This document shows positions 2,318 to 39,110 of a DNA stretch of 64,000 bases, piece by piece. A program made the translations under genes and the position numbers. The stretch lies in the IMG/VR virus record IMGVR_UViG_3300021387_000688; one strand, written 5' to 3'. The notes below the pieces were generated by a model that did not search any database, was not told the DNA's origin, and was given only the letters and a program-made list of their open reading frames with translations. Origin of the DNA: a virus (lineage: Duplodnaviria > Caudoviricetes). How positions within the stretch are numbered: the stretch's first letter is position 1; each line of letters begins with the position of its first letter.

Positions 2318-3337
2318 TTAAAACTGATCTGTAACGTTTTCATTAGTTTTCTTATCAATGATTTCAAATTTTGTAGGATTCTTTGTTCTTCTTTTTCTCA
2401 ACCAAGCTACTGCTTCTTTAACATCTTCTTCCTCTACGCAAACCCAAGCCGCAGCTCTATCATCTACCCAATCTTCAGGATCTGCACCAGTTTCTCTTCT
2501 TCCATTGTTTTCAAATATAGACTGAATTGGTTCCCAAATGTTTCTAGAATTTCTTGTATAGAAATCTTGATTCAAGTAAACAATTAATTGATAAGTATTT
2601 GGATCATAATCTTTTGCATATTCACCTGTTGCTAGTTTGTTGGCAACATTTAATACATACCACATAGCTGCATCTTCATAACCTGTACCATTACCTTTCG
2701 ATCCATTAGCGGCTTCTACAGTGAAGTTTAGGTTTTTATCAAATGCAAAGGTTGCAAGCTCTTCATCAGATTCGGAACCAATAAACAAGATTGTATAATC
2801 TTTTGAATCGGACCATACATCGAATAATGATTCCCCATAGATATCATATTGTTCGCTAAAATCTATAAATTTACATTTATCTGTTTTGAAAGCTAATCTT
2901 AACTGCTTTCTTAAAGCATACATATTAGCTACAAAAGTATCTCCTGGATTAGGATTGTTTTGCATTAATAAAAATTGACGGCCTTTTCGGGCGCGTTCAT
3001 TTACATGTTCGTATTCACTGTCTTTGAATAAATTAGAATGGTCGATAGCTTTCTTTATAAGTTCATCTAAATCTTTATCCAAATCTTCTTCAATAGTTGG
3101 ATGTACGGTTGTGTCATTATAAACATCCATACCTATATCAAACTTTGGGGAAATTATTTTTACTTCTAGTCTATTGTCATGATATTTACTTGCTACAAGA
3201 CTTAAACCCCAAGCATCGCAATATTCGTCCATATCAGACCAAATACCAAAACTATTACAAACATCTTTGAAATGAGCTCTCATTTCTTTGAGATTCCATT
3301 CACCTGTTTCACTGTTATAAAAATCTCTAAACTGCAT
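2318..3337 (-). CDS. Hypothetical protein, putative late/virion
   Basis: 339 aa, downstream of ACTAATTT at 3360-3367. Confidence 0.6.
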   Translation of the reverse strand: MQFRDFYNSETGEWNLKEMRAHFKDVCNSFGIWSDMDEYCDAWGLSLVASKYHDNRLEVKIISPKFDIGMDVYNDTTVHPTIEEDLDKDLDELIKKAIDHSNLFKDSEYEHVNERARKGRQFLLMQNNPNPGDTFVANMYALRKQLRLAFKTDKCKFIDFSEQYDIYGESLFDVWSDSKDYTILFIGSESDEELATFAFDKNLNFTVEAANGSKGNGTGYEDAAMWYVLNVANKLATGEYAKDYDPNTYQLIVYLNQDFYTRNSRNIWEPIQSIFENNGRRETGADPEDWVDDRAAAWVCVEEEDVKEAVAWLRKRRTKNPTKFEIIDKKTNENVTDQF

Positions 3338-3378
3338 TTGGATAAAAACCTCTTTTATAAAATTAGTAAGTCCAATAA

Positions 3379-3409
3379 AAAAGGTATCTCCTTTTAAGAG
3401 ATACCTTTT
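3379..3409. terminator. Intrinsic terminator
   Basis: AAGGTATCTC-7nt-GAGATACCTT with A/T tails. Confidence 0.85.
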
Positions 3410-3429
3410 AGTTTTTTATCTAATTTGCA

Positions 3430-5499
3430 TTAAGCAAACAAGTCCAACAACATTTCCTTAGTTGGATTTGAGAAATCCAAGTAGTTTGGAAGTTTAGTTT
3501 CAACCTCTGAAGGAGGAAGAATCTTTACTTCAACATAATCTGGAAGCTCTGCATCTGGATTCTTATCAAGCATGTCTTTGATCATCTCAACTTTAGCAAA
3601 TGCTTCTTCTGAAGAAATGCCGTCAATGTTGATTTTATATTCCTTAATAGGTGCATTTAACATTTCAGGAGTAACTTTCTTCCAACCTGCTTCTTTCAAA
3701 ATATCTTCAAGATCCACAAAGGAATCCATCTTAACCTGATTTGCCTTCTGAACGATATCAGAAGCTTTACCACTTACACGGCAGTTACCTGACTGGAGTA
3801 CAGTAAAGTACAACTTGTTGTTGTGTACATATCCGATGTTCTTCTGTCCCTGCTCATCAAAATCCATCATTGCATCAAATACAATGTTGTTAGGATCGCA
3901 CATACAAATGCCTCTTTCACGACGTCCGTAACCGCCACCAATATAGTTATTAATTTTTGTTTCCATGTTTTCACGAGCTACGAACAATCGGAACTTAGAT
4001 CCTGGGTTACCATTAAACTTATTCAAAGTCAAAAGACCGTCCTTAGCAGTTTTCTTCATATAGAAGAGCTCTGCAGCTTCTGGATCTGCGTTTGTCATAT
4101 CTCCAGAATAGATTGGCTGATCTTTTCCTCCACCATAGCTGTAACACCAACCGTAAGAGTTTCCATTTACGTCACAGTAGTGAAGATCGAAGTCACGAGT
4201 ACCCCATTCGTTACGCCAGTAAACACCCACTACGTTATCCTTGTCTCCAAAGTCAACATTTGTGCCCATTGGGAAGTTTCCAATGAAGTTCTTTTCTGAA
4301 GTAGGGCAAGCAATATGCAAAGCATCTGGGATGTAATAGAAACCGCCCTTAGCTTTCAAAGCTTCTACCAAAGACTCTCTCAATACACCGTACAACTGAG
4401 TCAAGTAAACAACATTGACGTGTGGTTTATAACCTTCGCGGATAAACATCTTTCCATTACGGATCACATACATCTTACCTTCAATTTCCTTTCCGGTAAG
4501 GCGTTCCATAATAGACTGCATCAACTGTACTTTTCTGAAGTTGTTCAAGCTACCAACGTTAGCTTTAGCTGTATTGATAAGCTGCACAAAGTCCTTTCCA
4601 TTGTCGTTCATACAAGATTCCCAGAAACCAATTTTCAATGGAGTATGGTTCTTAACGGCCAAACGACGAATCTTGTTTACATATTTAGCGTTATCGCCAT
4701 AACCCTTCATTGCAAGGAACAATGGCTTGTAACGATAGAAGATACGAGAAAGTGCCTTAAGCTGAACATCTGACAAAATTGCCAAATCGAAATCTTTTCC
4801 TGTACCAAATCCGTTCTTATGCTGGATAGAATAGATGGTAGCAGTATCCTTAATCAAGGAAGTCTTTTCAGTGTAACGATAGATGATACATCTCAAAAGA
4901 CCAAATTCATCCTTTGGATATTTCTTCAAAAGGGAAGCAATTACAGCCTGAGCTTCTTTGTTTTTAATCAAATCTGTATCTACAGAATCGAGGAATTTGT
5001 ATTCCTTCAAAAATTCAATACAAACATTGATTGTATCAGATTTCATAGCTGCACCGGATGCAAACATCTTCAAAATCAAATCGCGGATTTCTTCTGGGGT
5101 TGCAACTTTAATAACTTTAAACTTGTTGTATGGGATAACAATTGGCTGTTCATTTGGAACATAACCGTTGCCTTTTACATTGTACTCAATCTGAACAGTA
5201 GAGTCAGTCATCTCCTGGAGCAAAGTTGCATTGTCAACAGTACCGTAAGTAGATGCATAATGACGAATCTGATCAAGATACAATTCAAAACGAGATTTAG
5301 AAGTAATATCTGTCCAAGTCTTGTAGAAGGTGGAGTTTGGATTCATCTTCATTTCACGAAGAAATGCCAAAACATCTTCGGTTGCACAAGCAGGGTCAAC
5401 TACGTAGCCAGCCTTCAAACCAGCTTCTGCAATCTTTTCATAAGAAACTTCGTTGCCTGCCAATGCGCAATTAAACATGCCAATAATTTTTGTATTCAT
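3430..5499 (-). CDS. Large protein with C-terminal TerD-like domain
   Basis: Motifs VGVYW...DFDLH...YSGDMTNA...AAELF; AAGGAG RBS. Confidence 0.55.
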   Translation of the reverse strand: MNTKIIGMFNCALAGNEVSYEKIAEAGLKAGYVVDPACATEDVLAFLREMKMNPNSTFYKTWTDITSKSRFELYLDQIRHYASTYGTVDNATLLQEMTDSTVQIEYNVKGNGYVPNEQPIVIPYNKFKVIKVATPEEIRDLILKMFASGAAMKSDTINVCIEFLKEYKFLDSVDTDLIKNKEAQAVIASLLKKYPKDEFGLLRCIIYRYTEKTSLIKDTATIYSIQHKNGFGTGKDFDLAILSDVQLKALSRIFYRYKPLFLAMKGYGDNAKYVNKIRRLAVKNHTPLKIGFWESCMNDNGKDFVQLINTAKANVGSLNNFRKVQLMQSIMERLTGKEIEGKMYVIRNGKMFIREGYKPHVNVVYLTQLYGVLRESLVEALKAKGGFYYIPDALHIACPTSEKNFIGNFPMGTNVDFGDKDNVVGVYWRNEWGTRDFDLHYCDVNGNSYGWCYSYGGGKDQPIYSGDMTNADPEAAELFYMKKTAKDGLLTLNKFNGNPGSKFRLFVARENMETKINNYIGGGYGRRERGICMCDPNNIVFDAMMDFDEQGQKNIGYVHNNKLYFTVLQSGNCRVSGKASDIVQKANQVKMDSFVDLEDILKEAGWKKVTPEMLNAPIKEYKINIDGISSEEAFAKVEMIKDMLDKNPDAELPDYVEVKILPPSEVETKLPNYLDFSNPTKEMLLDLFA

Positions 5500-23872: not shown

Positions 23873-24973
23873 TTAAGCTTTGCAAAGGATGCGAGGGATA
23901 ATTTCACCCATCTTGGCAATTCTGATTTTGTCTCCGATTCGGATTCCATGATTGTTAATGATGTTCAAGTTACAAAGATTAGCTCTTGTAACAGTTGTAC
24001 CATCCAATTCAACTGGTTCGATGATTCCTACTGGAGTCAAAGAAGCTCCTGACATAGACCAGTCAATTCCAATTAATGTAGATTCAGCAATCATCAAATC
24101 GAACTTAAGTGCGGTTGCATTTTTCTGAACCTTTTCCAACTGATCTTTGTAATCCATTCTGTTTTCAAAGATTACAATTCCGTCGATTGCAAAGTCTTCT
24201 TCCTCTGTACCACGTACTTTAGAAAGTGTTTCGCGGAACTTAAGAATTTCATCAATGTTCTTGCAAACTTTATGTTCTGGAAGTGTAAAGCCGCATTCCT
24301 TCAAGAAATCAAACATTTCTGATTTTGTAGCAAATTCAACTCCACGAACGTCGTAAGCAAAGAACTGCATGTACTGAAGAGCATCGATTTCTTCATCTGT
24401 ATACTCTTCAAACTTCTTATTCATCAAACCTGAACCTGCGTTTCTTGGATTCTTTTTATCTTCGAAACATTTATGAGATTTGAAAGCCTTGTTACCAAGT
24501 TCAAATTCTCCACGAACCTGCATTGTCAAGTTATTTGGAACTGTCTTTGGGAATTTAAGATACTGAGCAATCTTGAGTTTATCGAAACCCGTATAACCAT
24601 TTCCGCGAGAAATAAGATGTGCAAGTTTACCATTTTCATACTGAACTTCGAAACCAGCGCCATCCATTTTAGAACTTACATCATATTCTTTATAAGGATG
24701 TCTACGAATCCAATCTTTGAAAGCTTCTACAGTCATGCACTTATCAAGTGTACCTGTAACAAGCTTATGATCCATTTTTGCATAACCTGCAGCTGAAGCA
24801 ACTTCTTCGTCTTCATCACCTGCCATTCCTGCAATCAAAGGATTCTCAGGATCAAGTACACGAAGCTCTTCGATCATTGCATCGTAAGCTTTATCGCTGA
24901 TCAATTCTTTTCCACTGTAATATGCATCTGCATAGTATTTAATCTGGTTTATAAGTTCTTCTGTTCTATTCAT
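23873..24973 (-). CDS. ligA: NAD+-dependent DNA ligase, adenylation + OB domains only
   Basis: AYY..ISDKAYD (Ia), KMDG, SRGNG, VRGE, NPRNAGSG, DGIV, ALKF, TPV..IEPVELDG, GEIIP. Confidence 0.9.
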   Translation of the reverse strand: MNRTEELINQIKYYADAYYSGKELISDKAYDAMIEELRVLDPENPLIAGMAGDEDEEVASAAGYAKMDHKLVTGTLDKCMTVEAFKDWIRRHPYKEYDVSSKMDGAGFEVQYENGKLAHLISRGNGYTGFDKLKIAQYLKFPKTVPNNLTMQVRGEFELGNKAFKSHKCFEDKKNPRNAGSGLMNKKFEEYTDEEIDALQYMQFFAYDVRGVEFATKSEMFDFLKECGFTLPEHKVCKNIDEILKFRETLSKVRGTEEEDFAIDGIVIFENRMDYKDQLEKVQKNATALKFDLMIAESTLIGIDWSMSGASLTPVGIIEPVELDGTTVTRANLCNLNIINNHGIRIGDKIRIAKMGEIIPRILCKA

Positions 24974-25311: not shown

Positions 25312-27075
25312 TTGAAATTACTAAAAGAATCTAATAACATCCAATCAAAAGAATTCGGTGACTGGGCAGTAGTGTTTTGGAAGAAAGGTTCTAAAACATT
25401 ATCTATTGCTCAAAATCAAGGGGATCCAGGTGCAACAGATTTTTGGATGGTAGGAACAACTACTAGACAATTTGATTATGAAAGTGGCTGGCTTCCAAAC
25501 AAAGAATGGTCAACTGCAATCAAAGGTCATTTCCCAAAAGATAAAGCAATTCAAATGGCGAAAGAGCAAGCAATGAAAGGATTAAAAGAAAGCCATATAA
25601 ATATCCCTAATAAATTCTCACTAAGTTTAAAAGAGTCTGCCGGCTTTGTGAAAAATGAAAATGTTTACGACTTTACAAACTTAGATGAGGATGAGAATAC
25701 TTTCAACACTATCATTAAAGAGTTTAATTTGAGGGAACTTTCTAGGGAAGAAATAGAGTCCCTAGGATTAGATATAAGTGTTCAAAATTCTGTAGTGGGT
25801 GTTTATGGTAGTTATGTTTCAGGAAATGGTATACCTGATGTAGTTGTATACGACTTTGAAATTTCCGACAGACAAAGACCTTATAAGTACACAATCAATG
25901 TAGTACAGATACAGGAACATGACAGGGCAGAGAAATATTTTTATATAATTTCTTCAAGATTATCTCAAATATTAGATGATCAATCAAGAGGATTAAAAGA
26001 AGGTTGCCTCGATCATATAAAAGATAAATGGCAATCAGAATTAGATAAAGGGGTTAAACCAAAAATTTTAATGGACCCTTGGGCTGTTTGTGAAGGAATG
26101 AAATGGTTAGGAAAAGATGGTTGGATTAGAGTAGAGGAAGTATTAACTCCAACAGAATACGAAGAACCTTATCCTGATTTTTATATGGAAATCTTCGACC
26201 AACATACTTGTGCAATCTCCCACGATATTTATACAATAAATGAAATTAATTCTTACGTTAGAAACACAAAGGCAAGATTGGTAAACAAGGGTATAAAGGA
26301 GAATAAAATGAAAAACTTAAAAGAAAGTGTAGAAGAAAGATATAAAATAGATATCTCCCCTATCCAAGGCAGTGGGGAAGAAATGTTATCTTTCCAAGAA
26401 ATGGTAGGTGAAGTACTTGAGAATATGGGGGGCATAGATAACATCGTAGAAATTGATGAAGAGTTCTTCGAAAGGAAATATCAATATTACTTAAAAAGTC
26501 ATCCTCGCAAAGAACATGGAGGTTGTAGATATGAAGATGATGAAGCCTGGATGCTTGCAATGAAATCTACTTTGAACAACGACCTTTCAATGTTGAACGA
26601 TGATATGGTTTACGATTATTACATGAGTGGCCGTTATAATGAAAGAAGCGATGAGTATAAAGCTATTTGGGATAAGTGCGTTCACGAAATCGAAAAGAAA
26701 GACCCAGACGATGGAAGTAGGTTCTACGATAGGTGGGATTTCACAACTCCAAGAGTAAACGAATCTAAAAAAGTAAGTAAGAAAAAAGTTCAGGAATCAA
26801 GAAAACCTTTCACTCCGGATATTCCTAATAACTTGTTAGAAATCCAAAACAATATGGAAGATGTGTTCACTATACATAGTTTATCAATAGCTGCAAGTGA
26901 ATCTGCAAATGGACTTGCAAAAGATATTCTTACATTAACAGGAACTAAAGTAGGGGAGTTGTTATTTACACCTGCAGGTTACTACATGGCAGGACCTCGT
27001 GAAGATATTTACTGGGAAGGTTCTACTTTAGAAGAATTCGAAGCTGACGTAACAGATTTAGCATATACATTGTAA
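25312..27075 (+). CDS. Putative virion polyprotein (about 5 modules)
   Basis: TTG start, AGGAG RBS; LLKES, GLKES, SLKES, GLKEG, IKENKMKNLKES, VNESKKVSKKKVQES. Confidence 0.65.
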   Translation: MKLLKESNNIQSKEFGDWAVVFWKKGSKTLSIAQNQGDPGATDFWMVGTTTRQFDYESGWLPNKEWSTAIKGHFPKDKAIQMAKEQAMKGLKESHINIPNKFSLSLKESAGFVKNENVYDFTNLDEDENTFNTIIKEFNLRELSREEIESLGLDISVQNSVVGVYGSYVSGNGIPDVVVYDFEISDRQRPYKYTINVVQIQEHDRAEKYFYIISSRLSQILDDQSRGLKEGCLDHIKDKWQSELDKGVKPKILMDPWAVCEGMKWLGKDGWIRVEEVLTPTEYEEPYPDFYMEIFDQHTCAISHDIYTINEINSYVRNTKARLVNKGIKENKMKNLKESVEERYKIDISPIQGSGEEMLSFQEMVGEVLENMGGIDNIVEIDEEFFERKYQYYLKSHPRKEHGGCRYEDDEAWMLAMKSTLNNDLSMLNDDMVYDYYMSGRYNERSDEYKAIWDKCVHEIEKKDPDDGSRFYDRWDFTTPRVNESKKVSKKKVQESRKPFTPDIPNNLLEIQNNMEDVFTIHSLSIAASESANGLAKDILTLTGTKVGELLFTPAGYYMAGPREDIYWEGSTLEEFEADVTDLAYTL

Positions 27076-27086
27076 GGAGCAGAAAG

Positions 27087-27938
27087 ATGAAAAGAAACTT
27101 AAAAGAAGATGACGGTGGAAAGATGGAATATCTAAAAGCATTGGAAGATGCTTTGGAAGCAGAAAACTATCTCTGCACTTATAACGACAAAAAGTTAATA
27201 GTAGATACAGACTTGGGAATGTTCGATATCGATTATGTTCCTGGAGAATGGGTTTATGTAATTCATTTCTCTGGTCCAAATAAAGAGTTTACAAAATACA
27301 AAAAGTATACTGATGACGTAGTAGAACTCATTGTAAATGTTGTAGAAGATCAATTAGATGATTGGAGTACAGAGCATTATATAGAATCTAAGAAGCCAAT
27401 TAAAAAGGGTATTAAAGAAGACCGTAGCTTAGGTCGTACACCTAAACCTTATAAAGCAGTTGAAAGGGGTACTACTGTTTTAGAACGTGACGGGGAACCA
27501 TGGACTGTAATCGAAAAAGGTACAGTAAGTGAATTAAATGAAAAATATCCAGAATGTCAAATATATGAGCGCCCTTACTATGATGCAGTATATGTAGGAG
27601 ATAATATATGTCAGTATGGGCATGAGGATAGAGGAAAGCATATATTCGTTTACGGTGAGCACGATGATGTCTATAATAATGTACTTGCTTATTATGATGA
27701 TGGACCTTCTCGTTCGTGGAGTGTTTATATGAGAGAATCTAGAAACTTAAAAGAAGGTGATGTAGAAGACGGGTGGTGTTTTATTTTCGGATCTGGAAAC
27801 TATAGTGTATATCAAAGAGGGGCCAATGAATATAAAGTAGAATGGAGTGACGGAGTTTGTTCTATTGAACCGATCCTTTGTAGCTCTGAAGAAGAAGCTA
27901 AACAAATCGTCGAGGAGTTACAGGATGCAGAAAAATAA
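27087..27938 (+). CDS. Putative virion polyprotein (3 modules)
   Basis: MKRNLKE, IESKKPIKKGIKE, MRESRNLKE. Confidence 0.65.
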   Translation: MKRNLKEDDGGKMEYLKALEDALEAENYLCTYNDKKLIVDTDLGMFDIDYVPGEWVYVIHFSGPNKEFTKYKKYTDDVVELIVNVVEDQLDDWSTEHYIESKKPIKKGIKEDRSLGRTPKPYKAVERGTTVLERDGEPWTVIEKGTVSELNEKYPECQIYERPYYDAVYVGDNICQYGHEDRGKHIFVYGEHDDVYNNVLAYYDDGPSRSWSVYMRESRNLKEGDVEDGWCFIFGSGNYSVYQRGANEYKVEWSDGVCSIEPILCSSEEEAKQIVEELQDAEK

Positions 27939-29058
27939 AAAAGAAAGTACTTTAGACTTGTTTGGACAGAATGCTAAAGTACATAAAGATAAAAATTGGA
28001 GACCGGACCTTATGAAGAAACAAATTAAAGAAAGAAGGATGCCTTATAGCGAAATACCTCAAGTAGAAGATTATATAGGTACCGCAAGAGCTAAAGGATT
28101 TGAATGTATTGAGGGTTCTTTAGTTAGTAAAGCTAAAGAAGTATTTACTCCCGTAATTATGAAGTTTAATGGAAATGTAGAAGCCAGGCTTAGAATATTC
28201 AGTCAAGGTAACTATACAATCTTTACAGACAAAGGTGGATGGGAAGGATTAGATTTAGAAGAGTTTGAAAAGGATTTGGACGACCTTCGTTCTTTATATG
28301 AAAGTGTTTCTAAAAAATCTAATAGAATTAAAGAATCTACAGCAGAAGACGATGCAGCTTTTAAAGAAGCAAAATCTTATATTAAAAAATCTTATCAAAA
28401 ATACGTACATAAGCTTTCAATAAGAAATGGTAAAGTAGATGCATTATCTCTTCAAAATTTCTTGTCAAGTCAAATAGGAAGAAAATTAAACTTCCATACA
28501 GCTAGTGGTAAAATGTTCTGGGAACTTTCAGAAGAAGAAGCTAATATTGAAGACGTAAATGTTACTCTCAATGCTTATGATATTCGTACAGATCTTTATG
28601 GAAGAAACTATGATAAAGTTAGAATCTATATCAACCAAGGTTCAAATTTAAAGAAAATTGATACTTCTTGTTGGAATAAAAATGTAAGGGCTTATAGGGC
28701 TGGGGTTGAGCAAAATGCAGATCCTATTGCAGTAGAACTTTCAAATATAATTATGCCACTTTGGAACAAAACAAAGTTCCCAGGAATACAAAGTGGAGAG
28801 ATTTACAAATCAGCTATTATGAAAACAAAGCCAGGAACTCCTAATACTATTGGTAGCACTTTAGATTTGGATAGAGTCGAAGCTTTGGGTAATATGTTGA
28901 AAAGGGAAAGCCGTGTTAATAATGTAGTTGTAGAGCCTACTAATGATATTGCAAAGAGAGTTAGAATTACTTTCGAATATGATTACCATGAAGTAGAAAT
29001 CTTGGCAATGGTTGCACAATTCGTTTGTCAAGTTGAATTAAGCATAGATTGTAAATAG
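27925..29058 (+). CDS. Putative virion polyprotein (2-3 modules)
   Basis: Start moved to MQKNKKES (GAGGAG RBS); MKKQIKE, LYESVSKKSNRIKES. Confidence 0.65.
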   Translation: MQKNKKESTLDLFGQNAKVHKDKNWRPDLMKKQIKERRMPYSEIPQVEDYIGTARAKGFECIEGSLVSKAKEVFTPVIMKFNGNVEARLRIFSQGNYTIFTDKGGWEGLDLEEFEKDLDDLRSLYESVSKKSNRIKESTAEDDAAFKEAKSYIKKSYQKYVHKLSIRNGKVDALSLQNFLSSQIGRKLNFHTASGKMFWELSEEEANIEDVNVTLNAYDIRTDLYGRNYDKVRIYINQGSNLKKIDTSCWNKNVRAYRAGVEQNADPIAVELSNIIMPLWNKTKFPGIQSGEIYKSAIMKTKPGTPNTIGSTLDLDRVEALGNMLKRESRVNNVVVEPTNDIAKRVRITFEYDYHEVEILAMVAQFVCQVELSIDCK

Positions 29059-29067
29059 GGGTTCAGA

Positions 29068-30909
29068 ATGAGAAAACTTAAAGAAGATAAAGAAGTTCCA
29101 GGAATGAAATGGTTTAGAGGTGGCCCAGTATTCAAGCCATATTTCCTCTCTGGAGTAGGAGTTGATGCAGCAGCTGTAGACAGTTATATAGACAAATTGG
29201 TTAAGGAACACAATAATCGTTTTGAAATAAAAGACCCTCGTATTACAGAAGAATTGTATTTTGAAGTAAAAGATTGGGATACAGGAGATGGAGACAATGT
29301 TTATGTAGACATTCTATTCAATCGTGAATTCGATAGAGAAATGAATGCAGAGAAATGGGGTAAAAAATCTTATGGGGCTACCAATGAGCATGGTTATGTA
29401 GAAGATTTACTAAACAATGGCTATTTAGAAAAACTTGGAATAACAGATGCTAAAATTACAGGAGTAGGATGGGACTCATCAAAACATGTACCAAGATGGA
29501 GTATTGAATTGTTCACATTCTCTGACAGAAATATAGACGGTACATTCAAACGTCCAAATACATCTGATTCATGGACTAGCTCTCATAATGTAAATGGTAC
29601 AGAACCTTTTAATAAAGAAGAAGGAAAAGAAATCAGTAAAGCAGTTACGGATTACATCATAGAGTTATTAAGAGCAAACCCTGCAAGAGTTTATTATAAG
29701 CCTTCTAAAGGAGTAACAGAAGTAAACATAGCTGATTACAGAACTCGTAGCTATGATCCTTCTTGGAAAGGAAGTTATACCCATAATACCGGTTGGTTTG
29801 GATTCACTTGTTACATTGAAGATGCTTATGATGAAAATGCAATCGATTGGAGAGGTAGACAAGGAGATACTTTTAGGGCAGACGAAGATGTTATTACATC
29901 CTTGCTACGAGATAAAGCAGCAGAAACTTTAAACGATTTCCTTTATGAGTTTAATCTAGAAGTTGTACCAGATGGTTGCAAAGCTGAATGGTATCACGGT
30001 AGTGAAGAGGATGATGAGAACGGACATTTGTTTGACGTTTCTATTAAGTTTAAAGAAATAGGTATTGATCCTGACAAATCTTATTTTGCACATCAAGGCA
30101 ATTCTTTCAAAGATTATTGGCCTGGTTCTGAACCAAAAGATCTTTACAAAGGTAAAACTTTCAAAAGGAATCCAAAAAGAATAAAAGAAGGTTTATTCGA
30201 TAATGTAGAATTTGGAGCAGAATTATCTACACCTCCTATGGAAAAATATAAAGACGTTGTATCTATGAGCATAGATGAAGGCATTTTGAATAGAGAAACT
30301 CCAAAGGAAACTATTGAAAATACTATTTACGAAGTATTGCGTATGTTCCCAGAAGATAATATAAATAACGAAATCCTCAGAGATTATGTATGCAAAAAAG
30401 TATATGAAAGAAATCCTTACGAAGAAGAAGCAGATGAATATTTAAAGGAATCTAAAAGTCTAAAAGAAGATGTAATTTTACATTTCGACCTAGAAGATGG
30501 TACTCACAAAGCCCTTCCATTTAAGTCTAAAGAAGAAGCTTTAGAATATTTGGATAGTGATGATTTTCCAGTTGGCGAATGGGTTGGAAGTTATGATATT
30601 GAAACTGTTAAAGAAACTAAACCTGTTAACGGAGATGATTACGACTACCAAGTTCTCCAACCAGAAGATGTTGAAAAGTTGAATGATCTTGTAAAAGAAA
30701 TAAAAGATGGTAATGAAGATGGTTGGGTTGACTGGATTGATCTTGCAATAGAAATTGGTAGAAAATATCTAGGAAAGAGTCTTTCAAGATATGGCGAAGG
30801 AGAGTATACACCATTCGAAGATTTAATAAACGAGTGTGAAACATTTGTATATTATAAAACACCTGGCATTGACAGAATGTTAAAGAAGAGACTTGACTTG
30901 CAAAACTAA
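29068..30909 (+). CDS. Putative virion polyprotein (about 4 modules)
   Basis: MRKLKE, KRIKEG, YLKESKSLKE, VKET. Confidence 0.65.
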   Translation: MRKLKEDKEVPGMKWFRGGPVFKPYFLSGVGVDAAAVDSYIDKLVKEHNNRFEIKDPRITEELYFEVKDWDTGDGDNVYVDILFNREFDREMNAEKWGKKSYGATNEHGYVEDLLNNGYLEKLGITDAKITGVGWDSSKHVPRWSIELFTFSDRNIDGTFKRPNTSDSWTSSHNVNGTEPFNKEEGKEISKAVTDYIIELLRANPARVYYKPSKGVTEVNIADYRTRSYDPSWKGSYTHNTGWFGFTCYIEDAYDENAIDWRGRQGDTFRADEDVITSLLRDKAAETLNDFLYEFNLEVVPDGCKAEWYHGSEEDDENGHLFDVSIKFKEIGIDPDKSYFAHQGNSFKDYWPGSEPKDLYKGKTFKRNPKRIKEGLFDNVEFGAELSTPPMEKYKDVVSMSIDEGILNRETPKETIENTIYEVLRMFPEDNINNEILRDYVCKKVYERNPYEEEADEYLKESKSLKEDVILHFDLEDGTHKALPFKSKEEALEYLDSDDFPVGEWVGSYDIETVKETKPVNGDDYDYQVLQPEDVEKLNDLVKEIKDGNEDGWVDWIDLAIEIGRKYLGKSLSRYGEGEYTPFEDLINECETFVYYKTPGIDRMLKKRLDLQN

Positions 30910-30925
30910 GAAGGTTTTGTAGAGA

Positions 30926-30933
30926 ACTAAATT
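30926..30933 (+). promoter_or_regulatory. Late-type promoter
   Basis: ACTAAATT in the intergenic gap. Confidence 0.5.
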
Positions 30934-30951
30934 ATTAAAGAGGATTAAAAC

Positions 30952-31956
30952 ATGGGTGCATGGTGGATTCGAAATGGTCATATAGTTGATATGGGAGAGG
31001 ACGATACCCACGGTCAATTGTTCTTAGAGGACCCTGATTTCTTTGGGTTCTCTAATGGTATTATCAATGACATTTGCAATCGGTACGAAATTAATGATTT
31101 ATGGGATTTGAAATACGATGATGACTTTGATAACGAATCCCACCCTGCATGGGACGAAATGATGGGTATAGCTTTAGCCAAAGGAGCTATACGTGTTAGA
31201 AATTTCAAAAACGAAACTTGGGTAACTTACGACATTCATTGTAGAAAAGATTTAATAAACGCAATGTTAGATTATCCTGAAGTATTTACTGGTATAATAC
31301 ATATAGGTGCTATTAACGGTTACGAAGGTATAGTACATGGGGGATATGGAGGGGATGAACGCTACAATTCTGTAGAAGAAGCCCTTCAATCACTAACTGA
31401 AAATAAGATTATGAAAAACAAAAGAATAAAAGAATCAGAAGAAAACTTTGATTCTAAAGACCCAGATTTATTTGATAATATCCAAGATGCCATTTATTCT
31501 ATCTTAACTGATTACGATAATGAAGTTTGGGAGAAAGCTGGTATTAAAAGATATTTTGAAGAACCTACAACTCATGGTGTTTTAGTTAGAGACCAATACG
31601 GTTCAAAAGTATTCCCAATTCATTATGGATTAAATGGCCCAGGTAAAGATGAAGATTATTTTGAAGCTATGGCCAAATTCATTGTAGATTTGGAAGACAT
31701 TCTTAAACCAACTTACCCAGAAGTAAATGTATACTGTGTTAATGTTTTAGTAGACTGCGCAGATGATGTAGGTACAGTAGTATTTGGAATAAGTGTTGGA
31801 GAAGACATAGACCCTAAAGAATCTATGAAGTGGAAAGAATCTGAAGGCGGAGTTGGTAAACCTCAAGATTCTGATGAAGAGAAAACTTCTAAATGGAATA
31901 AAGGTATTTATAAAATAGATCATTACAATGAACAAATTGATGAATGGGAGAAATAA
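30952..31956 (+). CDS. Putative virion polyprotein (2 modules)
   Basis: LTENKIMKNKRIKES linker; first module WWI..G..H...GAIRVR. Confidence 0.65.
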   Translation: MGAWWIRNGHIVDMGEDDTHGQLFLEDPDFFGFSNGIINDICNRYEINDLWDLKYDDDFDNESHPAWDEMMGIALAKGAIRVRNFKNETWVTYDIHCRKDLINAMLDYPEVFTGIIHIGAINGYEGIVHGGYGGDERYNSVEEALQSLTENKIMKNKRIKESEENFDSKDPDLFDNIQDAIYSILTDYDNEVWEKAGIKRYFEEPTTHGVLVRDQYGSKVFPIHYGLNGPGKDEDYFEAMAKFIVDLEDILKPTYPEVNVYCVNVLVDCADDVGTVVFGISVGEDIDPKESMKWKESEGGVGKPQDSDEEKTSKWNKGIYKIDHYNEQIDEWEK

Positions 31957-31958
31957 TT

Positions 31959-32441
31959 ATGGACAATGAAAGAATTAAAAAACATTATATCAACTCATTA
32001 TCTAAATTCTTGCCAGAAGATATTAAAAACAATTTCGATATTGACTGGGATGGTTATAATGTAAATATCGATGACAATGCAGAATGTGATTATGGTACGG
32101 TAACTGGTAAAGACGGAATAGAAGGGGCTTACTTTGAGTTTACTAACAAATCTAATCCAGAAGAGAAATACTCTGTAACTTATGGGATTGTTGGTAACTT
32201 CAGTACTTGGCAAACAGAAGATAGACCTTATGATAGAAACGGGGACCCAGGTGACCCAGGAGATATGGGTGATTATGAATTTACAGATTTCGATGACGAA
32301 GCCACTCAGGAACCTATTTTGTTAAATGCAAATGAAGATGAAATTAATCCTACTACAGATGTAGAAAAAGCCATCTTTGATGCAGTAGTAGAATACTATA
32401 GCGACCTTGAAAGTAGCATGGAAAATGGTTATTGGTTTTAA
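31959..32441 (+). CDS. Acidic hypothetical protein
   Basis: Start moved to MDNERI after GGGAG. Confidence 0.75.
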   Translation: MDNERIKKHYINSLSKFLPEDIKNNFDIDWDGYNVNIDDNAECDYGTVTGKDGIEGAYFEFTNKSNPEEKYSVTYGIVGNFSTWQTEDRPYDRNGDPGDPGDMGDYEFTDFDDEATQEPILLNANEDEINPTTDVEKAIFDAVVEYYSDLESSMENGYWF

Positions 32442-32444
32442 TTG

Positions 32445-32452
32445 ACTAAATA
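32445..32452 (+). promoter_or_regulatory. Late-type promoter
   Basis: ACTAAATA. Confidence 0.6.
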
Positions 32453-32471
32453 AAAATTATAGGAGAACTAA

Positions 32472-34034
32472 ATGAGAGTCTTAAAAGAAAATAGAGTAGT
32501 AGATGCAGTAGTAGACTACGTATATGGTTTAACAAAAGACGATTTAATTTCTTTTGAAGAAGCTGATAACTTTATAAATCTGCTTGCTCAAGGTGAAGTA
32601 GATGATGCAGATGAATATATAGTTTTTGATTGTGCAAACGGAAGCCCTCTTGGCAATGAAGACTTGGCGGTAAGGACTATCAAATCTTATCTTAAAGAAT
32701 CAAAAAAACCTTCTAAGAAAAGAATAAAGGAATCTTTTGATAACCCTATAGATGAAATCATTATGCCTTATACTAATTGGTCATCTATACCACTCCGCTC
32801 AGATGCAGATGCTATGATTGAAAATGCTAAAGAAGCTGCAGAAGAATTAAAGGCAAATGGATTTACTGCAGAAGAGGTAAAGGCGCATTTTGACGAAGAT
32901 GGATATTATGATGCAGTAAATGGTGTAGCTGAAGGCAATGGTACATGGGATCGTGCATTTGCAAATTGCATTCTTGCTAATCTTAAAGAATCTAAAAAGA
33001 ACTCTAAGAAGAGAATGAAAGAAAATGCAAACCTTGATGATGTTTATTATGTAGTCCTCTCTTGCCCTATTCAGTGTGACGAATACGGAAATCCTGAAGA
33101 TTGGGGTGCCGTAGAATTATTTGATACCAACTATGCTAAGTTTGAAGCTAAGGCAAGAGAACTTGGAATGAATGAGGTTTGCTGGGATGATGGGGATGCA
33201 GAATCAGGACCTATTATTAAAGGATCTGGTATATTCTACGGACCAGTAGAAAAAATTAGAGATTTAGTAGATGAAGGTTTTGACATTGAAGTATATGAAA
33301 ATTGCCGGGATGAACAACCTTATGAATTAACTGGCCGCATCTATGATGTTAACTCTTTAGTTTACGATGCAAACGGACTTTTAGGTGAGGAAGAGGTAGA
33401 TGCTTTAGATGAAGACGATGTTACGCTTCGTTCAATTCCTTCTTACAAATCTTTAAGAGAATCTGAATTAGATGATTTAGTAAATAAACCATTCAGTGAA
33501 TTAGTTGAGGATTTCTTAAATAAATTGGTAGCTGACGGATTGTTGGAAGAAGATGTAAAAGAAATCTTCATTACAGATTTCAAGAGCTCTAATGAACCAG
33601 AAGATATCGACATTGATTTACTTTATGATGGAGTAGGTGCAGATCCTCACGATCCTGCCAATCAAGAAATGTTTGCAGAAATTGCAAAAATGATTGAAGA
33701 CGCTTATCAGTTTAAGGATGAATGGAATGGCATCGATGCTTCAGACATGATTGATGAAGATGATCCTTTATACGGCTATGGCGAAGAAGATTTATTAGAA
33801 TCTAAGAAGCCAACTAAAAAGGCTATCAAAGAAGACGCTATAGCTAAAGACAGGGTAGGTATAGAAATTAAATCCTCAACAAAGGGTTGGGTATGGGCTA
33901 GTAAAGATGGACTCAAACCAGGTGCACCTTTAGAGTATAAAAACGAAAAAGCTGCAAAGAGTTCTAAAGAATGGAAAACATTCTTAGATAAGTACGGTGA
34001 AGAAAACTTAAGAGTAAGTAAAGCATATAACTAA
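32472..34034 (+). CDS. Putative virion polyprotein (5 modules)
   Basis: MRVLKE, LKESKKPSKKRIKES, LKESKKNSKKRMKE, LRES, LLESKKPTKKAIKE. Confidence 0.7.
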   Translation: MRVLKENRVVDAVVDYVYGLTKDDLISFEEADNFINLLAQGEVDDADEYIVFDCANGSPLGNEDLAVRTIKSYLKESKKPSKKRIKESFDNPIDEIIMPYTNWSSIPLRSDADAMIENAKEAAEELKANGFTAEEVKAHFDEDGYYDAVNGVAEGNGTWDRAFANCILANLKESKKNSKKRMKENANLDDVYYVVLSCPIQCDEYGNPEDWGAVELFDTNYAKFEAKARELGMNEVCWDDGDAESGPIIKGSGIFYGPVEKIRDLVDEGFDIEVYENCRDEQPYELTGRIYDVNSLVYDANGLLGEEEVDALDEDDVTLRSIPSYKSLRESELDDLVNKPFSELVEDFLNKLVADGLLEEDVKEIFITDFKSSNEPEDIDIDLLYDGVGADPHDPANQEMFAEIAKMIEDAYQFKDEWNGIDASDMIDEDDPLYGYGEEDLLESKKPTKKAIKEDAIAKDRVGIEIKSSTKGWVWASKDGLKPGAPLEYKNEKAAKSSKEWKTFLDKYGEENLRVSKAYN

Positions 34035-35153: not shown

Positions 35154-36845
35154 ATGGTATTAAAAGTATATAGAGTTGGTGATTTAGATAAATACCAAAG
35201 AAAAGCAGATTCAATGTATCAAATGTTTGGAAGAAGTACAGGTTACTTTGGCACTGGTTATTACTTTTGTACAAAGCCAGAATATTGTTGTACAATGACA
35301 AGAGAAAATGATCCTTTGTATAGACTTACATTAAAGGAAGGTATCAAACTTATAAAAGGTACTCAAAAATTACACGACAAATTAAAAGCTTGGAATGCTT
35401 TTATGATTAACTATCCTCGTCTCTTGAGTAAAGATTTAATCGATAAGGAAAAACGGTTTGCACATTATGCAATAGATTATTATACAGAGCGCCAACTTAT
35501 AGGTTCGAAATTAAAAGAGGATTTTGAAGTTTGGGGAGACTGGGCAGACAATTGGAAAGAATATCTTAGCCGAGAATATGGTATAAGAGAAATGATAAAA
35601 CGTGCAAAAGATATACCAGATTTGGAAGAGTTTGCAAATATATTAGAGAGTGACAAACCTGACTTTGATAGGATAGATGAAATCCAAAAAGAAAATGAAG
35701 ATTTATTTGATTACGAATATTTAAGTTCTATGAGAGATTTGGTTTTCGATGTTTTAGAACTTTTACCTATTCAATTGAATACAGATACGGAAACAATAAA
35801 AATGGCGGCTGATCATATTTACGAAACTTATGAAAGTTTTTATGAAAACGGAAGATTGAAACATGATTCGGATTTATCTGAAGACGATTCCTTTCCTACT
35901 CAATTGTTAAAGATTTTAGGATATGAAGGCGTTTGGCCAAGCAATGAATGTGACAATACAACTTATGGGGGAGTAATATTTGATTTAGAAAATTTCACTT
36001 ACGAAAGAATTGCAGACCACGCTAAAGATTATATTAAGAAAGATTTGAAAGAATCTACAGAAACATTAAAACAATTTAAAGTTTTATATCATGGTTCTAA
36101 AAATGGGGAATTAAGAAAAAATGAAAAACATAGCTACAATTGTTTGTATGTGACACCCGTTTTTGCTTATGCTGCAATGTACAGTACAGATTCTGATTCT
36201 ACACATGGTTGTGTTTTTGAAATGAAACCTGTTAGAGACTTAAACATTTTTGATGCAAATGATGAAGGGGCTTTAGAACAATTAAAAGCAAAAGTAGAAG
36301 AATTAAATCCTGAAAATACTTTAGTAAGAAGAATCAAATGGGAAGACTTGAAAACAAAAGATTGGAGTTCTGTTTGTTTCAAGCAAGATGAGGTAAGGGA
36401 TAAATTATTACTCGAATCTGTAAAAGCTTTAGGATATGATGGTTATATAAATACCGAGTGGGATGAAGATTGCGCTGAATGGTATGCTAGAGGGTTAGGC
36501 GGTTGCGGTAAAGTTGTAAATACAACTTCTATTGGAATATTTAATGAAGACCTTTTAGAGATAGTCGATGAGAAATATTTTGAAGATTATTCAGACGATG
36601 AGTTATTTAATGAATGCCATCAAGCCGATGAGGATTTGTTTATAACCTTTTTGCAGGATGAAGGTTTTGATGATTACTATTACGATAGTGAAGAAGAAGC
36701 TAAAAAATGGGCAGCCAATAACTTGCTATTCTTAGACGTAGATGAAGTAAATGATTTGGTTGACGAATATGCAAGTTATTCCGATAGGGAAGATGACTGG
36801 GATGAAGAGGAAGATGAAGAGGAAGATGAAGAGGAAGATGATTAG
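35154..36845 (+). CDS. Tandem ADP-ribosyltransferase-like protein, putative virion polyprotein
   Basis: VYRVG..GYFGTGYYFCT..LGYEGV..GVIFD; DLKES; LYHGS..LYVTP..YAAMY..LNIFD..LGYDGY..IGIFN; acidic tail. Confidence 0.65.
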   Translation: MVLKVYRVGDLDKYQRKADSMYQMFGRSTGYFGTGYYFCTKPEYCCTMTRENDPLYRLTLKEGIKLIKGTQKLHDKLKAWNAFMINYPRLLSKDLIDKEKRFAHYAIDYYTERQLIGSKLKEDFEVWGDWADNWKEYLSREYGIREMIKRAKDIPDLEEFANILESDKPDFDRIDEIQKENEDLFDYEYLSSMRDLVFDVLELLPIQLNTDTETIKMAADHIYETYESFYENGRLKHDSDLSEDDSFPTQLLKILGYEGVWPSNECDNTTYGGVIFDLENFTYERIADHAKDYIKKDLKESTETLKQFKVLYHGSKNGELRKNEKHSYNCLYVTPVFAYAAMYSTDSDSTHGCVFEMKPVRDLNIFDANDEGALEQLKAKVEELNPENTLVRRIKWEDLKTKDWSSVCFKQDEVRDKLLLESVKALGYDGYINTEWDEDCAEWYARGLGGCGKVVNTTSIGIFNEDLLEIVDEKYFEDYSDDELFNECHQADEDLFITFLQDEGFDDYYYDSEEEAKKWAANNLLFLDVDEVNDLVDEYASYSDREDDWDEEEDEEEDEEEDD

Positions 36846-38456: not shown

Positions 38457-39110
38457 ATGAAATGTATTAGATGTGGTAGAAATGTTAGAACCTCAGCAGA
38501 AGAAAGAAACTTCTTTAGAGGGATGGGTTATTACTCTCCAATGTATTGGGTTAGGGATCAAGGCTTGGATGAAACTCTTTGCAAAGCAGAAGGTTTAGAT
38601 CCTAACGATAGTGAACACTTTTTATGCTTTGACTGTTATTACGATTTGATGGAAAAGCAAAGAGATGAGTATTTAAAAAATAAGGACTTCGGCCCAATTA
38701 AAATAAAAGGAACATTTAAGGAGTCTAAAAATCTTAAAGAATCTACTCAAGAGGAAAGGGACCAAGAAGCTAGAGATTTAATTGAAAGCCCTTATAACAA
38801 TCTTCAGGAAGAAGATTTTGAATGGCTTAGGGAAAAAGACGAAACTTTAGACTATTGGTGGAATCAAACTTATGAAATGGAATTTTTAGAAAAAAGTCTT
38901 TATGATGGACCTACTTATGCAGATTTAGATGAGTCTAAAGAAGTTTCTTTTGAATTTTCAAATAATGCAGATGCAGATGAATTTATAGACGATGTAAAAG
39001 CCAGATATCATTATCCAACTTTGAGAAATAAACATGAAGTAGATAAAGGAGGTATAACTCCTAGGGGCGGAAAAGTTTATTTCAAAGGTGCAATTGCAAG
39101 ACCTAGATAG
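38457..39110 (+). CDS. Putative virion polyprotein with N-terminal zinc module
   Basis: CIRC...CFDC; FKESKNLKES; LDES. Confidence 0.65.
   Translation: MKCIRCGRNVRTSAEERNFFRGMGYYSPMYWVRDQGLDETLCKAEGLDPNDSEHFLCFDCYYDLMEKQRDEYLKNKDFGPIKIKGTFKESKNLKESTQEERDQEARDLIESPYNNLQEEDFEWLREKDETLDYWWNQTYEMEFLEKSLYDGPTYADLDESKEVSFEFSNNADADEFIDDVKARYHYPTLRNKHEVDKGGITPRGGKVYFKGAIARPR

Follow-up and report, generated by a model that had tools for sequence, protein, structure and literature searches.

Insertion, loss and translocation of protein modules at short [L/I/M]KE sites in a gene cluster of an uncultured giant phage

We analysed a stretch of 64,000 nucleotides (nt), here called the window, from an uncultured phage of about 398 kb (Duplodnaviria; Caudoviricetes; IMG/VR record IMGVR_UViG_3300021387_000688); the GC content of the window is 33-36%. 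It carries a cluster of seven genes (25312-34034) that, like all features with coordinates below, are given by window position and lie on the + strand. Between related phages, these genes differ by insertion, deletion, replacement and translocation of whole modules, as well as by gene fusion and fission, and nearly every junction falls on a short site that reads [L/I/M]-K-E followed by S, D, G or N. The genes at 25.3-34.0 kb and further ones at 35.2-39.1 kb are probably strings of independent modules, and ordinary short-homology recombination, coupled with selection on modules joined by putative cut sites, is the explanation that we consider most likely for their rearrangement.

Results

Modules, leaders and linkers

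The seven cluster genes encode 23 [LIM]KE motifs where shuffled proteins have 3.8 (P ≤ 2e-4), and at 21 of these the next residue is S, D, G or N. The module joint is at times doubled around a basic spacer of 11 residues (SKKxxKKxxKE); we call this longer form a full linker. The same motif ends the typical gene leader, a short M-x-x-L-K-E, and a leader opens five of the seven genes (genes 1 to 4 and 7, with xKLLKE, MKRNLKE, MQKNKKE, MRKLKE and MRVLKE, respectively), being kept in the relatives. Acidic stretches precede many linkers (EEDLLE|SKK, EEEDLEE|SHK), and an acidic tail ahead of the basic spacer may be part of the unit.

The loci compared are a 233-kb contig (L001), a 191-kb contig (L003), a 35-kb contig (L004), the more distant relatives L005/L006 and L007, and L008, in which related sequence occurs in another genomic context. 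The cluster is bordered on the left by an NAD-ligase/94-aa gene pair (aa, amino acids) and on the right by a 178-aa gene; between the same flanking genes, the window has seven genes, L001 six and L003 nine. Cut in silico at the [LIM]KE sites, the encoded proteins become differing strings of shared and unshared modules across the loci.

Breakpoints between relatives fall on the sites

We aligned the cluster by BLASTN with L001, L003, L004 and L008 and counted a breakpoint as on-site if it lay within 15 nt of the scissile position of a [LIM]KE motif. Twelve of the 17 distinct breakpoints were on-site as against 1.8 expected, a number that none of 200,000 permutations reached (P < 5e-6). Three of the five others are at 27936, the start of gene 3 with its KKE leader; at 30938, an intergenic joint; and at 29846, the edge of a 74%-identical allele, which marks the limit of detection and not a joint. 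The remaining two (32311 and 33380) are weighed below.

The neighbouring + strand genes, compared with L003 and L004, provide an independent check: both of their intragenic breakpoints lie exactly on sites. One is at DLKE|S (36045-36056; breakpoint at 36053) in the gene at 35154-36845, where L003 and L004 have a 455-nt insertion and a split gene. The other is at NLKE|S (38721-38745; breakpoint at 38741) in the gene at 38457-39110, with insertions of 1.2-1.6 kb in the same two relatives. The module order of the relatives is thus not fixed, and its breakpoints fall on linkers or [LIM]KE sites, as the initial annotation had anticipated.

The events are of several kinds. Module d1 follows the leader of gene 4 in the window, and a 74%-identical d1 stands between c1 and c2 in L001. 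Module V occupies in L004 the place of module C of the window. A linker-B-linker tract of gene 7 is 94.5% identical over 329 nt to L008, which is otherwise unrelated; both of its ends lie inside linkers, and the left linker is a hybrid. Genes also fuse and split at sites, as seen in the fossil AAGGAG-ATG-leader at 26293-26325 and in the fusion of genes 2, 3 and part of 4 in L001.

These architectures are not assembly chimeras, a possibility that we rejected: exact repeats in the window do not exceed 17 nt, the gene-2 protein of the window occurs on 7 contigs from 4 sources, the longest of about 398 kb, and the same architectures were recovered from more than one independent sample.

A matching linker pair and the translocation of module X

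The initial annotation had singled out two linkers in different genes, at 27383-27422 and 33797-33836, as nearly identical in DNA. We find them identical at 37 of 40 nt, as it had reported, the longest uninterrupted match being 17 nt; the encoded peptides are (I/L)ESKKPIKKGIKED and ESKKPTKKAIKED, and two of the three nucleotide differences alter an amino acid. A peptide scan (repeat families D1 and D2) locates five E-SKKxxKKxxKE linkers in three + strand genes, starting at 26761, 27384, 32697, 32988 and 33798. The related copies in gene 7 that had been noted earlier are thus real (32697-32732 and 32988-33023), and a fifth copy is found at 26761-26796. The modules on either side had been taken to be unrelated, which holds for the 45 nt downstream of the pair (8/45 identical). 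In the 45 nt upstream (27338-27382 and 33752-33796), 25/45 nt are identical, and random in-frame pairs average 13.7 (P = 6.5e-4). The upstream likeness is probably due to the acidic tails encoded on both sides; the peptides differ.

Directly after the linker at 27383 in gene 2 comes module X (27420-27737; 106 aa, DRSLGRTPK...WSVYMRE). It is 90.7% identical in nt sequence to L001:11325-11688 and 80-81% identical to the copies in L003 and L004. In all three relatives, X lies inside the homologue of gene 7, between modules D and E, with a linker that we call La before it and a 12-residue linker, Lb, after it. La is the counterpart of the window linker at 33797 and, since X stands behind it in three relatives, both window linkers must be copies of one ancestral linker; indeed, both align to one and the same linker of L001. 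L003 and the more distant L005 have another module, W, at the position of X in gene 2, behind a different linker of its own. Gene 2 of the window resembles L003 up to about TAGAATCTAA and continues as La.

These alignments show a translocation: X left the gene-7 position together with La and a shortened downstream linker and entered the linker of gene 2, one copy of La remaining after D. The linker at 27383-27422 is a hybrid, its first ~10-13 nt belonging to the resident gene 2 linker and the remainder to the La that travelled with X; the copy at 33797-33836 (linker 3 of gene 7) is the La that persisted after D on loss of X (and Lb). The right-junction alignment places a short linker, SRNLKE, after X (27738-27755), and this looks derivable from Lb (SKKAPNRKTLKE) by two in-frame deletions of 15 nt and 3 nt. 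The 37/40-nt pair thus exists because X moved with linkers and left one La behind; it is a consequence of one translocation and not a sequence maintained for recombination. The arrangement is stable in this lineage, since a 389-kb relative has the same gene sizes.

Could the same peptide and the same codon bias have produced the match without shared history? The Lys, Glu and Ser codons are biased: for this peptide and the local codon usage, 6.5 of the 11 identical residues would be expected to share a codon, and 10 do. Unconditionally, P = 0.02; with the rare AAG and GAC codons taken as given, P = 0.002. Since 10 linker pairs are possible, the codon identity is, from the window alone, suggestive only. 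The comparison with the relatives makes such convergence highly improbable. Outside the pair, the combination of rare codons (three AAG, one GAC) recurs only in L001 and L004, in the linker that precedes X, and among 30 linkers at 7 loci the lysine-codon pattern AAG AAG..AAA AAG..AAA is restricted to four, namely, the window pair and the La of L001 and L004. This pattern, the common L001 linker to which both copies align, X adjoining that linker in three relatives and the composition of the gene 2 junction refute convergence by codon bias for practical purposes, and the proposal that the identity goes beyond codon bias stands.

Module X occurs in about 10 protein contexts, always with KE|DRSLGR... 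at its start and ...E|[S/A]K..KE at its end. An exhaustive profile search recovered a small family of 6 clusters below 1e-10; weaker matches were ~30-residue repeated stretches in long bacterial proteins, which gave no functional clue. In the metagenomic protein P0013 (626 aa), X is joined via DKLKE|D to a preceding DUF6267 domain (Pfam PF19782, E = 8e-19), the sole recognisable domain found adjoining any of these modules.

Linkers diverge by position

Near-identity is not a general property of the linkers, as had been supposed. Their mean identity is 25.7/36 nt (71%), and they group mostly by orthologous position, for which reasons we rejected general concerted evolution. The copy at 26761-26796 in gene 1 (ESKKVSKKKVQE) is orthologous to L001:4286 and L003:2239 and is not a breakpoint. 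Linker 1 of gene 7 (ESKKPSKKRIKE; 32697-32732) forms the left end of the tract shared with L008; linker 2 (ESKKNSKKRMKE; 32988-33023) forms its right end, and it is here that L004 swaps module C for V. These two linkers, which flank module B, are mutually identical at 28/36 nt in the window, as compared to 32-34/36 nt in L001 (10226-10261 and 10517-10552) and L004 (709-744 and 1000-1035), so that linker 1 has turned linker-2-like in these two relatives, which suggests gene conversion between adjacent linkers. In another homologue, P0003, only SKKRVKE remains of linker 2, just what a deletion between its two SKK half-repeats would leave.

Short homology, selection and the alternatives

Three-way alignments of the junctions show 6-13 nt common to both flanks of each indel, mostly the AAAGAA of the K-E codons with adjacent bases, and hybrid linkers are found at the gene 2 junction and in L008. 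We consider it probable that the general recombination machinery of the phage acts on such short homologies, which range from 6-13 nt of A-rich K-E codons up to ~36 nt in full linkers, and that selection retains almost only those products with a junction on a site, where every module stays intact. The sites would be cut by the prohead protease, by analogy with gp21 of T4, the cleavage rule of which is (L/I)xE; [LI]KE fits this rule. Genes that are fused, split or re-ordered would then yield the same mature pieces, and shuffling would be nearly cost-free. The survival of on-site joints would thereby be explained, any rearrangement giving the same mature modules if the sites are cut.

Several points weigh against this explanation. 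Two off-site breakpoints do not conform: at 32311 there is no [LIM]KE in the window (the L004 side reads SLKE|K), and at 33380 we find a 7-nt microhomology, CCTTTAA, the insert in the relatives starting with PLTE|G. The pairs of sites that flank real indels are alike at 14.1/24 nt, random site pairs at 13.1/24 (P = 0.09), and we have accordingly rejected a choice of recombining sites ranked by homology. The cluster contains 70 AARGAR hexamers, and the 47 of them that are not [LIM]KE sites are almost unused as breakpoints. The direction in which X moved follows from parsimony over few genomes. Cutting and packaging are suggested by motif resemblance only, and we found no protease family among 51 other open reading frames (ORFs) of the 64-kb window. 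On the present data, the shares of selection and of targeting are not separable.

Homology by itself cannot explain the pattern, because recombined pairs are no more alike than random ones and the other hexamers stay almost unused. Thirteen breakpoints fall on K-E hexamers, one at the KKE leader of gene 3 and 12 on the 23 that are [LIM]KE sites, and selection for intact, releasable modules must therefore be a large part of the pattern. The initial annotation saw the linkers as in-frame microhomology: the junctions do lie on the sites, whereas the homology amounts to only 6-13 nt and does not single out the pairs that recombine. Its view that no dedicated recombinase is involved agrees with the cluster, which holds no recombinase gene.

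Selection might even act without any mechanical role of the linker sequence, illegitimate breaks and joins occurring anywhere and the sites simply marking domain borders at which in-frame joins survive. Most K-E hexamers being unused, the absence of a similarity excess among recombined sites and the identical N-terminus of X in about 10 contexts, despite widely differing upstream linkers, would all fit. We nevertheless hold this to be improbable, since every junction examined has 6-13 nt of shared sequence, the linkers at junctions are precise hybrids of normal length, neither ragged nor duplicated, deletions run between SKK half-repeats within linkers, and the two-ended exchange of the 329-nt tract ends exactly inside two linkers.

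Somewhat less improbable, and still unlikely in our judgement, are dedicated in-frame recombination hubs, the linker DNA being a substrate kept similar for that purpose and cassettes excising, perhaps as small circles, to re-insert at any linker, like an integron without integrase or the cassettes of T4-type phages bounded by promoter and stem-loop motifs (PeSLs), of which mini-circles are a precedent (PMC2839356). Two sites flank every indel, one being retained in the short form, four of the five full linkers of the window are breakpoints, and the hybrid linkers of gene 2 and L008 and the apparent conversion of linker 1 towards linker 2 in L001 and L004 are what hubs would produce. Set against this, identity among linkers averages only 71% and tracks orthology, not genome; lysine-codon patterns vary among linkers; the use of plain 9-nt LKE sites is about as frequent as that of full linkers (~9/18 versus 4/5); recombined site pairs are no more similar than random pairs; and the 7-nt microhomology, which is not in a linker, has also been used. 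An in-frame cassette system built on the [L/I]KE linkers is a similarly doubtful proposition: a module would be excised together with its linker and inserted again at any other linker, in the same phage or in a co-infecting giant phage, and any order, fusion or split would deliver the same mature proteins through cuts by the head protease at every linker.

The individual genes

Polyprotein gene 1 (25312-27075; 587 aa) consists of the leader, module a1, a mini-module of 15 aa, a2, a3, a fossil leader and a4. Its counterpart has 687 aa in L001 and is divided into 265 + 345 aa in L003, with indels at LKE and IKE sites. The mini-module SHINIPNKFSLSLKE (25591-25635) lies as 15 residues between two LKE sites, and the L001 counterpart (gene 2537-4600) has an 18-residue version of it at a different position in the gene. 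The fossil gene junction IKE-NKMKNLKE (26293-26325; repeat D8) combines in frame a Shine-Dalgarno-like AAGGAG, an ATG and a leader, and is a breakpoint with respect to both L001 and L003 (26281-26328). Over 26293-26335, the in-frame AAGGAG, ATG and KNLKES leader resemble the true start of gene 7, and this stretch looks like a former gene boundary.

Polyprotein gene 2 (27087-27938; 283 aa) has its leader followed by b1, the hybrid linker, X, the short linker and b3; in L001 it is fused to gene 3, as part of the fusion described above. In polyprotein gene 3 (27925-29058; 377 aa; leader, c1, c2), the site RIKE|S (scissile nt 28335) is where L001 has an insertion of 1.4 kb. Polyprotein gene 4 (29068-30909; 613 aa) comprises the leader, d1, d2, SKSLKE and d4, with breakpoints at 29086, 30184-30189 and 30453-30471.

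Genes 5 and 6 have no leader. In gene 5 (30952-31956; 334 aa), e1 and e2 are joined at RIKE|S, a site kept as RLKE|D in L005 and as KLKE|S in L007 between diverged flanks. Gene 6 (31944-32441; 160-165 aa) is without [LIM]KE site; in L004 its N-terminal part is swapped, and the junction on the L004 side is the SLKE|K mentioned above. Polyprotein gene 7 (32472-34034; 520 aa) reads leader, A, linker 1, B, linker 2, C-D, linker 3, E. Its homologues, of 628-870 aa, cover only 21-92% of it and have extra or different modules. An AlphaFold2 model of gene 7, built from 8 sequences, has a mean predicted local distance difference test (pLDDT) of 46, too low for a search by fold; confidence is moderate in modules B, D and E only, and low in the linkers.

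Neighbourhood and database searches

The 563-aa gene at 35154-36845 corresponds to two genes of 450 and 251/252 aa in L003:13942-16054 and L004:3306-5415. An extra gene of 720 aa stands between genes 4 and 5 in L003 (6306-8468), absent from the window and L001, at the place of the intergenic joint at 30938-30949; its product has a central hydrophobic stretch rich in Gly, Ala and Ile and no [LIM]KE leader. The NAD-dependent DNA ligase adjoining the cluster (23873-24973) is 366 aa long in the window and in close relatives; in the 403-kb relative L009 (8061-9920; NCBI GCA_016295295.1, contig JAEEGK010000011.1) its length is 619 aa, and the cargo cluster beside it consists of one 508-aa gene, which contains module X.

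DNA and protein searches of GenBank phages gave no match to the window and no cultured relative, and scans of IMG/VR for gene 7 and for the linker DNA found nothing either. PHROGs gave no match to genes 1-7 (E ≤ 0.01), and Pfam gave chance-level matches only (E 0.035-0.07, far below curated cut-offs). The other ORFs of the window yielded ligase, CCA-adding enzyme, thymidine kinase, NADAR, SLT and similar matches in PHROGs and Pfam, and no head genes.

Discussion

Whether phage mosaicism arises at conserved "linker" sequences (Susskind-Botstein, PeSLs) or anywhere in the genome, to be filtered by selection (Hendrix), is an old question of phage evolution. The cluster described here bears on it: what is exchanged are protein modules within genes, the junctions are resolved at single-nucleotide level, and genomes that are ~90% identical reveal several independent events. 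Should the sites be cut by a protease, the fusion, splitting and re-ordering of cargo genes in giant phages at hardly any cost would be explained, and there would be a simple rule by which to find the proteins that uncultured phages inject, with their exact mature ends. Were the cassette system true, such phages would have an arsenal of injected proteins open to free recombination, with no need of a recombinase. Our literature search found no paper on in-frame module shuffling at protease-type linkers.

Four known systems invite comparison. The internal proteins of T4 are a diverse, small, unrelated and fast-evolving set that shares only an N-terminal leader (PMC3012670, PMC5694885). With IPI-III and Alt, which have a capsid targeting sequence and are processed by gp21, the likeness is at the level of the motif, a short N-terminal leader that ends in hydrophobic-x-Glu. 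Here, in contrast, each reading frame holds many modules, with internal sites and basic spacers, and the leader has 6-7 residues as compared to about 10 in T4.

The head and ejection proteins of phiKZ, 201phi2-1 and SPN3US (PMC5694885, PMC10052503) also belong to giant phages with many head-internal proteins, a protease motif of the x-x-Glu type, multiple cleavages in each protein, paralogue families that vary in size and a preference for Ser at P1'. Their motif, however, is (A/S/G)-x-E, the cuts remove propeptides instead of separating strings of modules, and linker-based shuffling has not been reported for them.

Polyvalent proteins (Iyer et al. 2017, PMC5512222) and polymorphic toxin systems (PMC3482391) similarly combine many unrelated domains per polypeptide with extensive mosaicism; delivery together with the DNA has been proposed, and cassette recombination diversifies polymorphic toxins. 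Those proteins carry recognisable conflict domains, often with a peptidase of their own; in polyvalent proteins several such domains (ART, nucleases, peptidases, MuF or portal fusions) share a polypeptide. In genes 1-7, PHROGs and Pfam recognise no domain; the unifying feature is instead the recurrent, putative cut-site linker, and in Iyer et al. (PMC5512222) the words "linker" and "shuffling" occur 0 times. As to polymorphic toxins, genes 1-7 have no trafficking domain, pre-toxin motif or C-terminal toxin by PHROGs and Pfam; their modules vary along the entire protein length, and the cluster has no small downstream immunity-like genes.

Closest in kind is the PeSL shuffling of T4-type phages (Arbiol et al. 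2010, PMC2839356; Comeau et al. 2014, PMC4122927), where less than 50 bp of homology is needed and ORFans are shuffled at conserved flanking motifs (PMC2839356). In both systems, variable units lie between short conserved sequences, close relatives differ by indels that are bounded by two copies of the motif with one chimeric copy left, and no dedicated recombinase is invoked; the argument of "acceptable locations" fits both. PeSLs, however, are intergenic motifs of ~100 bp, composed of a promoter and a stem-loop, that move whole genes, whereas the sites described here are 9-40 nt long, in frame within genes and only ~55-71% alike, and what they move is protein modules.

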